From IMG/VR virus record IMGVR_UViG_2698536576_000001: 22,860 nucleotides of DNA; one strand, 5' to 3'. Under the pieces are notes generated by a model. That model was not told the DNA's origin, ran no database searches, and worked only from the letters and a program-made list of their open reading frames with translations. Shown here piece after piece: positions 15,734-22,860 of this stretch (positions are counted from its first letter, which is position 1; every line of letters begins with the position of its first letter). This stretch comes from a virus. Lineage: Duplodnaviria; Heunggongvirae; Uroviricota; Caudoviricetes. The position numbers and the translations under genes were made by a program.

Positions 15734-15752
15734 TGAAAAACGTTTTATGTGA

Positions 15753-15779
15753 AACCGCCTCCGGGCGGTTTTGTCGTTT
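15753..15779 (+). terminator. stem-loop in the I-J intergenic region (possible attenuator)
   Basis: AACCGCC-TCCG-GGCGGTT hairpin (7-bp stem) followed by the T-rich TTGTCGTTT. Confidence 0.35.
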
Positions 15780-15793
15780 ATGGAGCGTTAGGA

Positions 15794-18700
15794 ATGGGTA
15801 AAGGCAGCAGTAAGGGGCATACTCCGCGCGAAGCGAAGGACAACCTGAAGTCCACGCAGTTGCTGAGTGTGATCGATGCCATCAGCGAAGGGCCGATTGA
15901 AGGTCCGGTGGATGGATTAAAAAGCGTGCTGCTGAACAGTACGCCAGTGCTGGACACTGAGGGGAATACCAACATCTCCGGCGTCACGGTGGTGTTCCGG
16001 GCCGGTGAGCAGGAGCAAACACCGCCGGAGGGATTTGAATCCTCCGGCTCCGAGACGGTGCTGGGTACGGAAGTGAAATACGACACGCCGATCACCCGGA
16101 CCATCACGTCGGCAAACATTGACCGACTGCGTTTTACCTTCGGCGTGCAGGCACTGGTGGAAACCACCTCAAAGGGGGACAGGAATCCGTCGGAAGTCCG
16201 CCTGCTGGTTCAGATACAACGTAACGGTGGCTGGGTGACGGAAAAAGACATCACCATTAAAGGCAAAACCACCTCACAGTATCTGGCCTCGGTGGTGGTG
16301 GGTAACCTGCCGCCGCGCCCGTTTAATATCCGGATGCGCAGGATGACGCCGGACAGCACCACAGACCAGCTGCAGAACAAAACGCTCTGGTCGTCATACA
16401 CCGAAATCATCGATGTGAAACAGTGCTACCCGAACACGGCACTGGTTGGCGTGCAGGTGGACTCGGAGCAGTTCGGCAGCCAGCAGGTGAGCCGTAATTA
16501 TCATCTTCGCGGGCGCATTCTGCAGGTGCCGTCGAACTATAACCCGCAGACGCGGCAATACAGCGGTATCTGGGACGGAACGTTAAAACCGGCATACAGC
16601 AACAACATGGCCTGGTGTCTGTGGGATATGCTGACCCATCCGCGCTACGGCATGGGGAAACGTCTTGGTGCGGCGGATGTGGATAAATGGGCGCTGTATG
16701 TCATCGGCCAGAATTGCGACCAGTCGGTGCCGGACGGCTTTGGCGGCACGGAGCCGCGCATCACCTGTAACGCTTACCTGACCACACAGCGCAAGGCGTG
16801 GGATGTGCTCAGTGATTTCTGCTCGGCGATGCGCTGTATGCCGGTATGGAACGGGCAGACGCTGACGTTCGTGCAGGACCGACAGTCGGATAAGGTGTGG
16901 ACCTATAACCGCAGTAATGTGGTGATGCCGGATGATGGCGCGCCGTTCCGCTACAGCTTCAGCGCCCTGAAGGACCGCCATAATGCCGTTGAGGTGAACT
17001 GGATTGACCCGAACAACGGCTGGGAGACGGCGACAGAGCTTGTTGAAGATACGCAGGCCATTGCCCGTTACGGTCGTAATGTCACGAAGATGGATGCCTT
17101 TGGTTGTACCAGTCGGGGGCAGGCACACCGAGCCGGGCTGTGGCTGATTAAAACGGAACTGCTGGAGACGCAGACCGTGGATTTCAGCGTGGGTGCTGAA
17201 GGGCTTCGCCATGTACCGGGCGATGTCATTGAAATCTGCGATGATGACTATGCCGGTATCAGCACCGGTGGTCGCGTGCTGGCGGTGAACAGCCAGACCC
17301 GGACGCTGACGCTCGACCGTGAAATCACGCTGCCATCCTCCGGTACCACGCTGATAAGTCTGGTTGACGGAAGTGGTAATCCGGTCAGCGTGGAGGTTCA
17401 GTCCGTCACCGACGGACTTAAGGTGAAAGTGAATCGGGTTCCTGACGGCGTTGCAGAATACAGTGTGTGGGGGCTGAAGTTGCCGACGTTGCGTCAGCGC
17501 CTGTTCCGCTGTGTGAGTATCCGTGAGAACGATGACGGCACGTATGCCATCACTGCCGTGCAGCATGTACCGGAAAAAGAAGCCATCGTGGATAACGGGG
17601 CGCACTTTGACGGCGACCAGAGCGGCACGGTGAATGGTGTCACGCCGCCAGCGGTGCAGCACCTGACCGCCGAAGTCACCGCAGACAGCGGGGAATACCA
17701 GGTGCTGGCGCGCTGGGATACGCCGAAGGTGGTGAAGGGCGTGAGCTTTATGCTTCGCCTGACCGTGGCAGCGGATGACGGCAGTGAGCGGCTGGTCAGC
17801 ACGGCCCGGACGACGGAAACCACATACCGCTTCACGCAACTGGCGCTGGGAAACTACAGGCTGACAGTCCGGGCGGCAAATGCCTGGGGGCAGCAGGGCG
17901 ATCCGGCATCGGTATCGTTCCGGATTGCCGCACCGGCAGCACCGTCGCGGATTGAGCTGACGCCGGGCTATTTTCAGATAACCGCCACGCCGTATCTTGC
18001 CGTTTATGATCCGACGGTACAGTTTGAGTTCTGGTTCTCGGAAAAGCGGATTACCGATATCAGGCAGGTTGAAACCACAGCCCGCTATCTTGGTACGGCG
18101 CTGTACTGGATAGCCGCCAGTATCAATATCAAACCGGGCCATGATTATTATTTTTACATCCGCAGTGTGAACACCGTTGGCAAATCGGCATTTGTGGAGG
18201 CTGTTGGTCAGCCGAGTGATGACGCATCCGGCTATCTGGATTTTTTCAAAGGCGAGATAGGGAAAACCCATCTGGCTCAGGAGTTGTGGACGCAGATTGA
18301 TAACGGTCAGCTTGCGCCTGACCTGGCTGAAATCAGGATGTCCATTACGGATGTCAACAATGAAATCACGCAGACCGTCAATAAGAAGCTGGAAGACCAG
18401 AGTGCAGCGATCCAGCAGATACAGAAGGTTCAGGTTGATACAAATAATAACCTGAACAGCATGTGGGCTGTGAAGCTGCAGCAGATGCAGGACGGACGCC
18501 TTTATATCGCGGGTATTGGTGCCGGTATTGAGAATACCCCTGACGGTATGCAGAGTCAGGTGCTGCTGGCGGCGGACAGGATTGCGATGATTAATCCTGC
18601 GAATGGCAATACAAAGCCGATGTTTGTTGGTCAGGGCGATCAGATATTTATGAATGAAGTGTTCCTGAAATATCTGACGGCTCCCACCATTACCAGCGGT

Positions 18701-19273
18701 GGCAATCCTCCGGTATTTTCCCTGACACCGGACGGGCGGCTGACGGCGAAAAATGCCGATATCAGCGGTAACGTGAATGCGAACTCCGGGACGCTCAACA
18801 ACGTCACGATTAACGAGAACTGTCGGGTTCTGGGAAAACTGTCCGCGAACCAGATTGAAGGCGATCTCGTTAAAACAGTGGGCAAAGCTTTCCCCCGGGA
18901 CTCCCGTGCACCGGAGCGGTGGCCATCAGGGACCATTACCGTCAGGGTTTATGACGATCAGCCGTTTGACCGGCAAATTGTTATTCCAGCGGTGGCTTTT
19001 AGCGGTGCCAGACATGAACGGGAGAATAGCGATACTTATTCGTCATGCCGCCTGATAGTGAAGAAAAATGGGGCTGAAATTTATAACAGAACGGCTCTGG
19101 ATAATACTCTGATTTACACGGGTGTTATTGATATGCCAGCAGGCAGTGGCGTAATGACACTGGAGTTTTCTGTATCAGCATGGTGGGTAAATGGCTGGTA
19201 TCCCACAGCAAGTATCAGCGATTTGCTGGTTGTTGTGATGAAGAAAGCCACTGCAGGCATCACGATTAGCTGA
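15794..19273 (+). CDS. J: tail tip / host specificity protein J (central tail fibre)
   Basis: 1159 aa. The N-terminus [37 protein letters not shown]... and most of the length match lambda gpJ as recalled, with fibronectin-type repeats in the middle. The C-terminal ~250 aa diverges from lambda J. The ORF-track start at 15749 is upstream of the RBS-supported ATG at 15794. Confidence 0.93.
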
Positions 19274-19292
19274 ATTTTAAAACCCAAATTCG

Positions 19293-19316
19293 GGCACCAG
19301 AAATGGTGCCTTTTTT
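19293..19316 (+). terminator. intrinsic terminator after J
   Basis: GGCACC-AGAAAT-GGTGCC hairpin followed by TTTTTT (19311-19316). Confidence 0.65.
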
Positions 19317-19331
19317 ATTTGTGGAGTGAAT

Positions 19332-21728
19332 ATGGCAGTACAGATTTCAGGTGTGCTGAAAGACGGTGCAGGAAAACCAATACAGAACTGCACTATTCAG
19401 CTCAAAGCAAAGCGTAACAGCACCACGGTACTGGTGAACACAGTGGCCTCTGAAAATCCGGATGAAGCCGGGCGTTACAGCATGGATGTTGAGTATGGCC
19501 AGTACAGCGTCATCCTGCTGGTTGAAGGTTTTCCGCCTTCACATGCCGGGACCATTACCGTCTATGAAGGCTCCAGACCAGGTACGCTGAATGATTTTCT
19601 CGGTGCCATGACGGAGGATGATGTCATGCCGGAGGCATTGCGTCGTTTTGAGGAAATGGTGGAAGAAGCGGCACGCAACGCTGAAGCCGCCTCTCAGAGC
19701 GCAGCGGCGGCAAAGAAATCCGAAACGGCTGCGGCATCATCGAAGAACGCGGCGAAAACCTCAGAAACGAATGCAGCTAACAGCGCACAGGCGGCAGCGG
19801 CCTCGCAGACTGCATCGGCAAACTCCGCGACAGCAGCCAAAAAATCAGAAACCAACGCGAAAAATAGCGAGACAGCCGCAAAGACGAGCGAAACCAACGC
19901 AAAGTCCAGCCAGACGGCAGCGAAAACCAGCGAAACGAATGCCAAAGCCAGTGAAACTGCGGCGAAAAATAGCCAGAATGCAGCAGCCGAAAGCGAGAGT
20001 GCGGCAGCTGGTTCTGCGACTTCAGCAGCTGGATCAGCAACTGCTGCGGCTAACAGCCAGAAAGCAGCGAAGACGAGCGAAACTAACGCAAAGTCCAGCC
20101 AGACGGCAGCGAAGACCAGCGAAACGAATGCCAAAGCCAGCGAAACTGCGGCGAAAAGCAGTCAGGATGCAGCAGCTGAAAGCGAGAGTGCCGCAGCTGG
20201 TTCTGCAAGTGCGGCGGCTGCTTCTGCCACTGCATCAGCAAACAGTCAAAAAGCTGCAAAAACCAGTGAAACCAATGCAAAGACAAGCGAGACTGCAGCG
20301 GCGAACTCGGCGCAAGCATCGGCAGCAAGCCAGACAGCAGCTAAAGCAAGTGAGGATGCAGCCAGAGAGTATGCAAGCCAGGCTGCGGAGCCGTATAAAC
20401 AAGTATTGCAGCCGCTTCCTGATGTGTGGATACCATTTAACGATTCGCTGGATATGATTACGGGTTTTTCGCCATCATATAAAAAGATTGTTATTGGTGA
20501 TGATGAAATAACGATGCCTGGCGACAAGGTTGTTAAGTTTAAACGCGCATCGAAAGCAACCTATATTAATAAATCTGGTGTGCTGACAGAGGCTGCCATT
20601 GACGAGCCACGGTTTGAACGTGATGGCCTGCTTATTGAGGGGCAAAGAACGAACTACATGCTCAATTCGGAAAGCCCTGCCAGTTGGGGGCGATCGTCAA
20701 ATATGGATGTTCCCGAAACCGGGACGGATAGTTTTGGTTTTACCTATGGAAAGTTTGTCTGTAACGATTCTCTGATTGGGCAAACCTCAGCCATTAATAT
20801 GGCATCAATTGCTGCAACAAAGTCAGTTGATGTCTCAGGCGATAATAAATACGTGACAACCTCATGTCGTTTTAAAACAGAACTGCAGGTAAGGTTGCGT
20901 ATCCGATTTGATAAATATGACGGTAGCGCAACAACTTTTCTTGGTGATGCGTATATTGATACACAAACGCTTGAAATTAATATGACAGGTGGTGCTTCCG
21001 GTAGAATTACGGCACGAGTCAGGAAGGAGGAAACTACAGGATGGATTTTTGCTGAGGCAACAATTCAGGCAATTGATGGTGAGTTAAAAATAGGCTCTCA
21101 GATACAGTATTCACCTAAGCAGGGAGGGGCAACCGTATCAGGTGACTATATTTATCTGGCTACCCCACAAGTAGAGAATGGGGCTTGTGTATCATCTTTT
21201 ATTATATCAGGAACGACGGCGGCGACTCGTGCGAGTGATATGGTTACGATCCCGACCGAAAACAACATTTATAACAGACCGCTTACTTGTTTGGTCGAGG
21301 TTAACAGGAATTGGGGCGATATTCCTCCTAATGTAGCACCGCGTATTTTTGATTTTTCTGGTGTGCCGCCTATTGAGTCAATCACATACGCTTTTAACAC
21401 AACCGAGAAATATTACGGTCAGCTTTATATGCAAACTTATAAAGCGTCGACAAGTAGTTACGTTTCTAGTTTGTTTACTGGTCGAACGGATGTTCGAAAA
21501 TTCATTGGTGGTTTTAATATTTATTCTGATGGTACTAAACGAGTAGTTTCTAACGGTGAGGCTACTAAAACCATGAAAACGGAATGGACGGGCGTAAAAA
21601 CGCGGACCTTTATTCGAATAGGAGGTCAAGCCACATCAGGGACACGTCATCTATTCGGCCATTTGAGAAATCTTCGTCTCTGGCATAAAGAATTAACTGA
21701 TGCGCAAATGGGGGAGAGTATTAAATGA
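19332..21728 (+). CDS. stf: side tail fibre protein (Stf-like N-terminus, repeat-rich shaft, unrelated low-GC distal domain)
   Basis: N-terminal ~120 aa match lambda Stf as recalled (MAV.ISGVLKDG.GKP.QNCTIQLKA.RNSTTV.VNTV.SENPDEAGRYSMDVEYGQYSVIL...GFPPSHAGTITVYE). Ala/Ser/Thr/Lys-rich repeat shaft. RBS GTGGAG before the ATG at 19332. Confidence 0.88.
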   Translation: MAVQISGVLKDGAGKPIQNCTIQLKAKRNSTTVLVNTVASENPDEAGRYSMDVEYGQYSVILLVEGFPPSHAGTITVYEGSRPGTLNDFLGAMTEDDVMPEALRRFEEMVEEAARNAEAASQSAAAAKKSETAAASSKNAAKTSETNAANSAQAAAASQTASANSATAAKKSETNAKNSETAAKTSETNAKSSQTAAKTSETNAKASETAAKNSQNAAAESESAAAGSATSAAGSATAAANSQKAAKTSETNAKSSQTAAKTSETNAKASETAAKSSQDAAAESESAAAGSASAAAASATASANSQKAAKTSETNAKTSETAAANSAQASAASQTAAKASEDAAREYASQAAEPYKQVLQPLPDVWIPFNDSLDMITGFSPSYKKIVIGDDEITMPGDKVVKFKRASKATYINKSGVLTEAAIDEPRFERDGLLIEGQRTNYMLNSESPASWGRSSNMDVPETGTDSFGFTYGKFVCNDSLIGQTSAINMASIAATKSVDVSGDNKYVTTSCRFKTELQVRLRIRFDKYDGSATTFLGDAYIDTQTLEINMTGGASGRITARVRKEETTGWIFAEATIQAIDGELKIGSQIQYSPKQGGATVSGDYIYLATPQVENGACVSSFIISGTTAATRASDMVTIPTENNIYNRPLTCLVEVNRNWGDIPPNVAPRIFDFSGVPPIESITYAFNTTEKYYGQLYMQTYKASTSSYVSSLFTGRTDVRKFIGGFNIYSDGTKRVVSNGEATKTMKTEWTGVKTRTFIRIGGQATSGTRHLFGHLRNLRLWHKELTDAQMGESIK
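19876..20300 (+). repeat. in-frame tandem repeat, 189-bp unit (63 codons), about 2.2 copies, inside the stf shaft
   Basis: Near-identical DNA copies start at 19876, 20065 and 20254 (GC(A/C)GC(G/A)AAGACGAGCGAAAC(C/T)AACGCAAAGTCCAGCCAGACGGCAGCG...). The protein shows AAKTSETNAKSSQTAAKTSETNAKASETAAK... twice. Confidence 0.85.
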
Positions 21729-22006
21729 AAGATTTAACACTTAAATTTGCCGACAGGGCCGATTTTTCGGCCTTTATGGATAGCACTGGCTATTATGATG
21801 ATGAGTCGATGCAGGATGATATTCTTATTGACGTGATAGGTAACGTGTACAAAGAAACCGGAGAACTGAATGAAGATGGCGAACCGGTATGTGTTAAGGA
21901 AGACGGATATTTTGTAAACGTGCGCATCATTAATGATTCGCAAATATCGTCATTATTCGATGAATACGTGGTTGCTGTTGAGCATCAACTTCGTGGCTGG
22001 ATGTGA
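21725..22006 (+). CDS. small acidic hypothetical protein (candidate fibre assembly/adaptor factor or DNA-mimic-like protein)
   Basis: 93 aa; the ATG overlaps the stf stop (ATGA). About 22 Asp/Glu against about 8 Lys/Arg; low-GC codon usage like the distal part of stf. Confidence 0.5.
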   Translation: MKDLTLKFADRADFSAFMDSTGYYDDESMQDDILIDVIGNVYKETGELNEDGEPVCVKEDGYFVNVRIINDSQISSLFDEYVVAVEHQLRGWM

Positions 22007-22015
22007 GGAAGAAAA

Positions 22016-22860
22016 ATGGCTACATCGACAGTAATTCCTGATGACATCAAAACGCTAAAATCCGACGTTAGCAAATTAAAAAACGATCAAGGAAGCTACG
22101 CAACAAAATTATATGTAGACAGCAAAGATGAAATCGTTGGTGACTGGTCTGCTTCATGGTATCAGCAGGTATTGCCAACTAGCGGAGCTATATTTGGGAG
22201 AAAACTCCGCTCAACTCACAGGACGGCAGGTGTTGAGGATGCGTATTGCGAACTATACCTCAAAAAATGGATAGACAGTCCAGGTAACGCAATGGCGCGC
22301 CTTAACCTGAACGATAACGGGACAAACATTTGCTGGGACTTTACCAACCTTTATGGCGGTACGATGATTTTTCCCGGTGACAGCGGATACCTCAAAATGG
22401 GTAACTGCCTTATGTCATACAGCAAGCGTGGAAGTAACGCGCTTATTAAATTTGATTACACCGACACATTACAGATCAAATATGCCAATCATGGGTCAAC
22501 CATGACATTAAACACACAGGGAACCGCTTATGCTGGTGTTACTGCTCAATTGTGGGGCAACTCCAGCCGTCCTGTTGTTTATGAAGTCGGTGTTGATGGT
22601 GGCGCTTATATGTTCTATGCGCAGAAAAATACCGATAACACCTATATGTTAAGCGTTAATGGTGCATGTCATGCCACCGCATTTAACCAGCATTCCGACC
22701 GGGATCTGAAAGACAACATTCAGGTGATCGATAATGCAACCGACCGCATCCGTAAAATGAACGGCTATACATACACGCTTAAAGAAAACGGTATGCCCTA
22801 TGCTGGTGTCATTGCACAGGAAGCTCTGGAAGCAATCCCAGAAGTTGTAGGTTCCGCAAT
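22016..22860 (+). CDS. tail fibre/tailspike-like protein with C-terminal peptidase S74 intramolecular chaperone domain (3' end beyond window)
   Basis: Hand translation from the ATG at 22016 (GAGGA 7 nt upstream) is open to the window end (at least 281 codons). From about 22694 it reads SDRDLKDNIQVIDNATDRIRKMNGYTYTLKENGMPYAGVIAQEALEAIPEVV, matching the conserved S74 motifs (SD.RLK.NI, GVIAQE...PE.V). Absent from the ORF track because it is incomplete. Confidence 0.75.
   Translation, partial: MATSTVIPDDIKTLKSDVSKLKNDQGSYATKLYVDSKDEIVGDWSASWYQQVLPTSGAIFGRKLRSTHRTAGVEDAYCELYLKKWIDSPGNAMARLNLNDNGTNICWDFTNLYGGTMIFPGDSGYLKMGNCLMSYSKRGSNALIKFDYTDTLQIKYANHGSTMTLNTQGTAYAGVTAQLWGNSSRPVVYEVGVDGGAYMFYAQKNTDNTYMLSVNGACHATAFNQHSDRDLKDNIQVIDNATDRIRKMNGYTYTLKENGMPYAGVIAQEALEAIPEVVGSA

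Follow-up and report, generated by a model that had tools for sequence, protein, structure and literature searches.

A 189-bp in-frame tandem repeat in the shaft of a lambda-type side tail fibre, probably an old in-phase duplication of nine coiled-coil heptads

We examined a tandem repeat within the side tail fibre gene, stf, of an Escherichia coli lambdoid prophage, the source of a 22,860-nucleotide (nt) stretch of DNA (IMG/VR virus record IMGVR_UViG_2698536576_000001, Caudoviricetes) that is referred to here, at its full length, as the window. The repeat has a unit of 189 base pairs (bp) and is best explained, with a probability that we place at roughly 0.85, as an ancient in-phase tandem duplication of nine heptads in the proximal trimeric coiled coil of a lambda-type side tail fibre protein (Stf). 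Since the unit is an exact multiple of seven residues, its gain or loss preserves both the reading frame and the register of the coiled coil. According to this explanation, a collar (amino acids (aa) 1-94) would dock the fibre on the tail tip and residues ~101-350 would form a rod, such that gain or loss of a unit would alter only the length of the rod, by ~9.3 nm (63 x 0.148 nm). Copy number would shift through rare unequal homologous exchange, or misaligned replication, in stretches that are still identical between the units; a deletion allele would then combine the head of unit 1 with the tail of unit 2, and the middle unit of a triplication would combine the head of unit 2 with the tail of unit 1.

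Tandem Repeats Finder located the array at 19862-20300 of the window, with a period of 189, 2.3 copies, 83% matches, 0% indels and a score of 612. Arrays with periods of 21 and 42 are nested within it, the 42-nt arrays being two-heptad sub-repeats (AKTSETN AKSSQTA). A scan of self-identity across offsets gave a peak of 83.6% at 189 nt versus 46-61% at the remaining multiples of 21, and the 189-bp tandem periodicity proposed in an earlier note on this DNA is therefore borne out by both methods. Because the background is itself heptad-periodic, the null distribution was generated by shuffling the order of the 34 heptad-sized blocks of the coil (n=2000) and recording the best 250-nt identity at any offset. 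The shuffled coils reached a mean of 0.594 (standard deviation 0.022, maximum 0.684), and the observed value of 0.836 was attained in 0 of the 2000 shuffles. The components of the repeat are as follows.

19863-20051, plus strand: repeat unit 1, 63 codons, nine heptads
20052-20240, plus strand: repeat unit 2, 63 codons, DNA 85.7% identical to unit 1
20241-20300, plus strand: partial third unit, a stub of ~20 codons
19896-19963, plus strand: most conserved core of unit 1, with exact-identity runs of 14, 29 and 26 nt; the counterpart in unit 2 is 20085-20152

The unit is a multiple of three and lies inside the open reading frame (ORF) 19326-21728 on the plus strand, and it is therefore in frame. 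The first 14 aa encoded by the stub (NSQKAAKTSETNAK) match the head of unit 2 and the sequence diverges afterwards, with a DNA identity of 76% across its first three heptads. At the protein level units 1 and 2 share 55 of 63 residues; 15 of their codons differ synonymously and 8 non-synonymously, and the longest exact run that they have in common is 29 nt. The earlier description of about 2.2 near-identical copies thus holds for the number of copies, two units and a stub, but not for their near-identity. The core interval corresponds to unit nt 34-101, which is where diagnostic sites in the middle unit of a three-unit allele (contig L155, described below) place the crossover.

The gene that contains the repeat and the parts of its product that bear on the repeat are listed below.

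19332-21728, plus strand: side tail fibre gene stf, intact, 798 aa from the ATG; the mechanically called ORF opens at a GTG at 19326
19332-19613, plus strand: N-terminal collar domain, aa 1-94, matching PDB 9e7m/9mgh (the N-terminus of Ur-lambda Stf) with an E value of 2e-49
19632-20381, plus strand: alpha-helical coiled-coil shaft, aa 101-350, with 34 uninterrupted heptads at 19668-20381

The ATG at 19332 (MAVQISG…) is most likely the true start, in agreement with lambda Stf and with the way RefSeq annotates a 100% identical copy of the gene. Pfam PF08400 (prophage tail fibre N-terminal) matches aa 3-133 with an E value of 1.8e-67, and the gene lies directly downstream of gpJ (15749-19273), which has all of the J domains and is itself preceded by lambda-type Z, V, H, L and I genes. 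The PF08400 match, the match to the Ur-lambda collar, which in lambda anchors the fibre to the tail tip (PMC12617516), and the position after gpJ together support the assignment of the gene, as judged from its sequence, as a lambda-type side tail fibre. The product also matches phrog_1419 from end to end (1454 bits); since this profile spans 793 positions, the two-unit architecture is the norm for phrog_1419. Within the shaft, the 34 heptads run without a phase break over 238 residues (115-352 when numbered from the GTG start). Tabulation of the heptads shows Ala at position 1 in 31 of 34, Ser at position 4 in 32 of 34 and Ala (25) or Asn (7) at position 7, giving an Ala-x-x-Ser-x-x-Ala/Asn rod that is almost devoid of large hydrophobic residues. 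The ORF frame, the PF08400 match and the heptad rod agree with a 63-codon, in-frame unit in the side-tail-fibre shaft, as had been suggested, and the nested short SETNAK-type repeats noticed at the same time prove to be true heptads. By homology, the interpretation of this region as a shaft appears well founded.

To gauge the age of the duplication, we compared paralogue and orthologue identities across 65 related loci with a coil of equal length, representing 53 distinct sequences. Unit 1 and unit 2 of the same locus are 79-87% identical in every one of the 53 distinct relatives, whereas the identity of each unit with the corresponding unit of the window is 93-100%. Since paralogue identity is lower than orthologue identity, the duplication predates the divergence of these relatives and the units have not been homogenised. 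Variable sites are distributed over codon positions 1, 2 and 3 of the main frame in the ratio 35:27:100, a pattern that indicates purifying selection in the annotated frame. The proposal that copy number be compared across related prophages did bring differences to light, but the coil has exactly the length found in the window, with two units, in 65 of 85 related loci; a further 14 of the 85 carry two units, the second lacking one heptad, together with a different coil end. Two units are likewise present in 14 of the 16 phage records that contain the unit, including the isolated phages Tritos, HannyBb, 2G7b and ev207. All 12 full-coverage matches in a spread sample drawn from ~970 complete genomes have the same length as the window and, when a three-unit query was used, all of the best 40 complete-genome matches were two-unit alleles, each aligned as two overlapping pieces. 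The window stf is 100% identical to that of strain LH85-a and at least 99% identical to that of nine further complete E. coli genomes, all with two units. On this comparative evidence, the duplication appears to be old and stable, with the two-unit form as the predominant state.

Alleles with other numbers of units are rare. A one-unit allele is carried by phage IdasGreatGrand, by several protein clusters and by four different complete genomes of E. coli (AVS0655, CB209, MSB1_4I and FFFEB2). The single unit of IdasGreatGrand shows one switch, from unit-1 to unit-2 diagnostic states, between unit nt 116 and 125. At least two mid-unit states (KSSQDA versus KNSQVA or KNSQDA) occur among the single-unit protein clusters, which may reflect separate events or lineage variation. 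Three full units are present in two metagenome contigs, L153 (OAWG01000135.1) and L155 (OBBR01000118.1), which differ from each other in the distal part that follows the three-unit coil. In these alleles units 1 and 2 are 96.8% identical, and the middle unit is unit-3-like up to nt 33 and unit-1-like from nt 102, the one change of state falling between nt 34 and 101, in a stretch where the units are identical. Unequal homologous exchange or misaligned replication would be expected to yield reciprocal products with just such one-unit and three-unit junctions, and for single clean junctions of this kind replication slippage is no better an explanation than unequal homologous exchange. A search of viral contigs with an exact 13-mer marker recurring ~189 nt apart retrieved 34 two-unit matches and no three-unit allele, and none was seen in the phage records examined. 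Nor was one present among the best 40 complete-genome matches, although a three-unit allele of lower identity may rank further down. The two contigs emerged from a degenerate-marker search of metagenome contigs, which returned 48 matches, of which these 2 were related to stf and 46 were chance matches. Smaller changes in length also occur: locus L082 carries an in-phase deletion of 49 aa, by way of a 147-nt offset of the nested repeats, and complete genomes include variants that are 105 and 168 nt longer than the one-unit form, in each case by whole heptads. With the coil delimited from the N-terminal anchor to the first proline, alleles of one, two and three units would have coils of ~28, 37 and 46 nm, respectively. 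Across lambdoid phages, the coil ranges from ~21 heptads in the phage-21-like Lambda_4C10 to ~41 in lambda.

Several observations weigh against an in-phase duplication in a continuous trimeric rod. AlphaFold2, applied to the full-length monomer with a shallow alignment of 30 close relatives and used for secondary structure only, predicted helices at 101-221 and 242-350 with low confidence (mean predicted local distance difference test (pLDDT) score of 49.7). The helix is broken at aa 222-241, in Gly-containing heptads at the end of unit 1, and this predicted break could be a real flexible point. We infer the trimeric coiled-coil state of the window protein from published homologues, our own model being a low-confidence monomer, and any functional effect of shaft length is conjectural. 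Single clean hybrid junctions do not in themselves separate slippage from recombination. Both three-unit contigs derive from short-read metagenome assemblies and may represent one shared event. Finally, protein clusters P0044, P0046, P0117, P0119 and P0106 have coil lengths that differ from that of the window by -4, -12, -30, -41 and -68 aa; these departures from multiples of seven may be stutters or stammers, draft-assembly errors or artefacts of the boundary rule.

A different emphasis would assign the coil DNA a main role as a set of homology patches for the exchange of distal receptor-binding modules, with the duplication as a by-product. The similarity of some relatives to the window does stop inside the coil, at gene positions 356, 473, 630, 894 and 968, the three-unit coil is found with two different distal parts, and engineered chimeras that join the N-terminal part of lambda Stf to foreign C-terminal fibres still function (PMC11338833). 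However, breakpoints in the 85 relatives are commonest on the downstream side of the coil, at gene positions ~1331 (~30 loci) and ~2028 (29 loci), and exchange leaves unexplained why changes in length preserve the heptad phase. We regard this as unlikely to be the principal role of the coil DNA; it is compatible with an ancient in-phase duplication and not an alternative to it. A second idea, that shaft length is a selected 'ruler' whose ~9.3-nm steps match the reach of the fibre to the depth of O-antigen or capsule, or to the length of the central fibre, seems to us very doubtful. If true, the one-, two- and three-unit alleles would be neither neutral nor accidental but adaptive, with ties to particular hosts or distal receptor-binding modules.

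The earlier note had envisaged an array prone to slipped-strand expansion and contraction, with shaft length differing between isolates. In its strongest form this would make the repeat a hypervariable, contingency-type locus, in which frequent slipped-strand mispairing renders shaft length routinely variable as a fast-switching adaptive trait. One-, two- and three-unit alleles do exist, and to that extent the expectation is upheld; moreover, the nested 21- and 42-nt repeats offer many registers for misalignment, of which the 147-nt offset used in the L082 deletion is an example. A labile array is, however, contradicted by the 14% divergence of the units, with no exact common run beyond 29 nt, by paralogue identities that lie well below orthologue identities in every distinct relative, and by the constancy of two units (65 of the 85 loci, 14 of the 16 phage records and each of the 52 complete-genome matches inspected), together with the complete lack of three-unit alleles in the 34 viral contigs. 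Contingency loci have many near-identical short units that change at high frequency, whereas the window has two 189-nt units of 85.7% identity. What we observe instead, namely whole-unit alleles and hybrid junction units with rare variants, fits a minisatellite-like in-frame coding repeat that is polymorphic in copy number. We therefore consider contingency-type variation highly improbable. It is scarcely credible that the shaft is a beta-structured fibre (a triple beta-helix or beta-spiral) rather than a coiled coil. The heptad core positions are indeed almost without large hydrophobic residues, which is unusual for coiled coils, but the homologous PCoil is a reversibly alpha-helical trimer by circular dichroism and electron microscopy (PMC3368898). 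In addition, the corresponding region of Ur-lambda was modelled as a coiled coil from cryo-electron microscopy (cryo-EM) and cryo-electron tomography (cryo-ET) (PMC12617516), AlphaFold2 predicts helix over 101-221 and 242-350, and the seven-residue periodicity is strict across 238 residues. Mis-assembly of a repetitive region, as the origin of the duplication or of its copy number, can be dismissed: many family proteins in databases are 'partial', with contigs that end within a gene that is hard for short-read assemblers, but the two-unit structure recurs in 10 complete genomes at an identity of at least 99% and in independently sequenced phage isolates, ~970 complete genomes match at a coverage of at least 80% (all of the 12-match spread sample having the length of the window), and the 27 differences between the units make collapse or expansion unlikely.

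Among the closest known counterparts is the side fibre of Ur-lambda (gpStf; Yu et al. 2025, PMC12617516), in which cryo-EM and cryo-ET revealed a trimer with a collar (1-91), a flexible linker, a proximal coiled coil (102-393), a hinge and a distal part. The window protein resembles gpStf in its collar, in its position after gpJ and in an Ala/Ser heptad rod that begins at about residue 101, and it aligns with lambda Stf at 59% identity over 292 positions with 26 gaps, through the collar into the start of the proximal coil. The lambda coil is longer, with ~41 heptads compared with ~36 in the window protein, and lacks a large internal duplication, its best self-offset identity being 0.37. The distal half of the window protein is also unrelated to that of lambda, and the alignment with lambda Stf detected no similarity past the coil; it contains instead a domain resembling gene-transfer-agent (GTA) spike fibres, and the gene is followed not by a Tfa gene but by a 93-aa ORF of phrog_1361. 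Since the lambda-like distal part and Tfa are variable within the PF08400 family, this mismatch does not exclude membership. The distal domain is located as follows.

20631-21233, plus strand: distal beta-rich domain, aa 434-634, matching NF048003 (gene-transfer-agent head spike fibre domain) with an E value of 1.8e-12

AlphaFold2 modelled aa 434-634 as a beta sandwich, with pLDDT values of 70-89 around aa 450-610, while the last 180 residues (21186-21728, aa 619-798) were modelled without any confidence. The distal and receptor-binding parts of the fibre lie in the C-terminal 450 aa, and the difference in GC content between the coil (56.7%) and the distal part (42.9%) suggests that the distal half has a different origin from the coil. 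The coil also gave weak NCBIfam matches to SMC and NlpC/P60 proteins, which we rejected as a product of coiled-coil composition, not homology.

A second counterpart is the PCoil of EPclA and EPclB, which are collagen-like tail-fibre proteins of enterohaemorrhagic E. coli prophage (Ghosh et al. 2012, PMC3368898); this domain likewise follows a PF08400 N-terminus and forms a heptad rod. Its Ala-x-x-Ala/Ser-x-x-Ser heptads are of low complexity and almost free of Leu, Ile and Val, and its alleles differ in length by multiples of seven. EPclA and EPclB differ from the window protein, which has no such domains, in that the coil is followed by collagen triple-helix domains, and in the part of that paper available to us we found no mention of a 63-aa tandem duplication with reciprocal one- and three-unit alleles. 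Homotrimeric assembly, with four fibres per virion, is known only for Ur-lambda (PMC12617516) and for EPclA (PMC3368898). SETNAK-like heptads also occur at residues 129-178 of DpK2, the depolymerase of Klebsiella phage RAD2 (PDB 7lzj), where they align with the window repeat with an E value of 0.0017, in an N-terminal region described as an 'extended triple helical bundle' that was seen at low resolution without an atomic model (PMC8552709). DpK2 is the tailspike of a different phage type and its similarity to the window repeat may be partly compositional. Parallels are also provided by streptococcal M proteins and the stalks of trimeric autotransporter adhesins, in which in-frame, heptad-compatible repeats change rod length by intragenic homologous recombination. 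Repeats in these proteins are usually more numerous and more alike, and their size variants are frequent and immunologically selected, in contrast to the two diverged units and rare variants of the window repeat.

The coil region also contains several ORFs that we consider to be spurious.

19618-20457, plus strand: 279-aa ORF in the +1 frame, the last 109 codons of which (20128-20457) are annotated in RefSeq
19694-20134, minus strand: 146-aa antisense ORF, a hypothetical protein in the CFT073 annotation
19777-20040, 20083-20328 and 20246-20527, minus strand: further antisense ORFs of the same nature as 19694-20134

The earlier note had attributed these ORFs to the 189-bp repeats. Over the whole of the coil (19668-20381, 714 nt), the +1 frame has 0 stop codons and each minus-strand frame has 3-6; the corresponding counts for an equal length of the distal part are 9 and 4-15. 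Since stop codons are scarce across the entire coil, the spurious ORFs arise from its Ala/Ser/Thr/Lys/Glu codon composition and not from the duplication, and the attribution to the repeats does not stand. We do not accept the +1-frame ORF as a genuine overlapping gene: its frame is broken in 15 of the 53 distinct relatives, substitutions concentrate on main-frame third positions, the product is rich in Arg and Gln, and family and profile searches with this product yielded no family match. RefSeq nonetheless names the 20128-20457 ORF 'phage tail protein' (WP_077881232.1) or 'hypothetical protein'. In both LH85-a and CFT073, the RefSeq annotation (PGAP) divides stf into an N-terminal 'pseudogene', this out-of-frame 109-aa ORF and a C-terminal 'phage head spike fiber domain' protein, to which the annotation of CFT073 adds the antisense 146-aa ORF; despite this split, a continuous stf ORF is present in each (3007-5403 in retrieved locus L001 and 1270-3669 in L169, respectively). 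The stop-poor coil therefore misleads automatic annotation, inflating the counts of hypothetical proteins and hiding intact fibre genes. In lambda, orf206b (1248-1868 of retrieved sequence L086; NC_001416 20147-20767, minus strand) runs antisense to the segment of stf (orf-401) that encodes the coil, and is a stop-poor artefact of the same kind as the antisense ORFs of the window. An unusually long antisense ORF of 562 aa lies wholly within gpJ (16583-18271, minus strand) and, as with those in the stf coil, is probably an artefact of composition. Most database homologues of the window protein are labelled 'partial' and end 100-280 residues past the coil, which implies that stf is a frequent site of breaks in short-read assemblies. 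The probable cause is that the N-terminal part is common to several prophages of one genome; the number of matching places per genome has a median of 2 and a maximum of 14.

In the window, stf follows gpJ without an intervening lom gene, the gap (19273-19332) being 58 nt; this position is occupied by lom in lambda, IdasGreatGrand, PhiR40_1 and the CFT073 prophage. The 93-aa ORF downstream (21725-22006; phrog_1361, conserved, with no assigned function) overlaps the stf stop codon by 4 nt and is followed by a second fibre gene (22016-22860) that contains a Peptidase_S74 intramolecular chaperone domain. The identical copy of the genome (L001) has a tail-fibre-assembly pseudogene and a pinQ-type invertase gene farther downstream, and these may be what is left of an invertible fibre segment. 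At 4941-7160, the window contains a single 739-aa ORF with a ClpP-type protease domain (aa 95-255) and a major capsid protein domain (aa 441-736), and this fusion indicates that the head genes, unlike the tail genes, are not lambda-like.

The repeat is of a known and ordinary kind, being part of a PF08400 heptad shaft for which length variation in multiples of seven has already been published, and the allele in the window is common in E. coli. Its significance for basic biology is accordingly small. The useful by-products of the analysis are the demonstration of reciprocal one- and three-unit alleles and of a systematic mis-annotation of stf in RefSeq. Since the coil tolerates the gain or loss of a whole nine-heptad block, it offers a phase-preserving route to engineered lambda-type fibres that differ in length by steps of ~9 nm.

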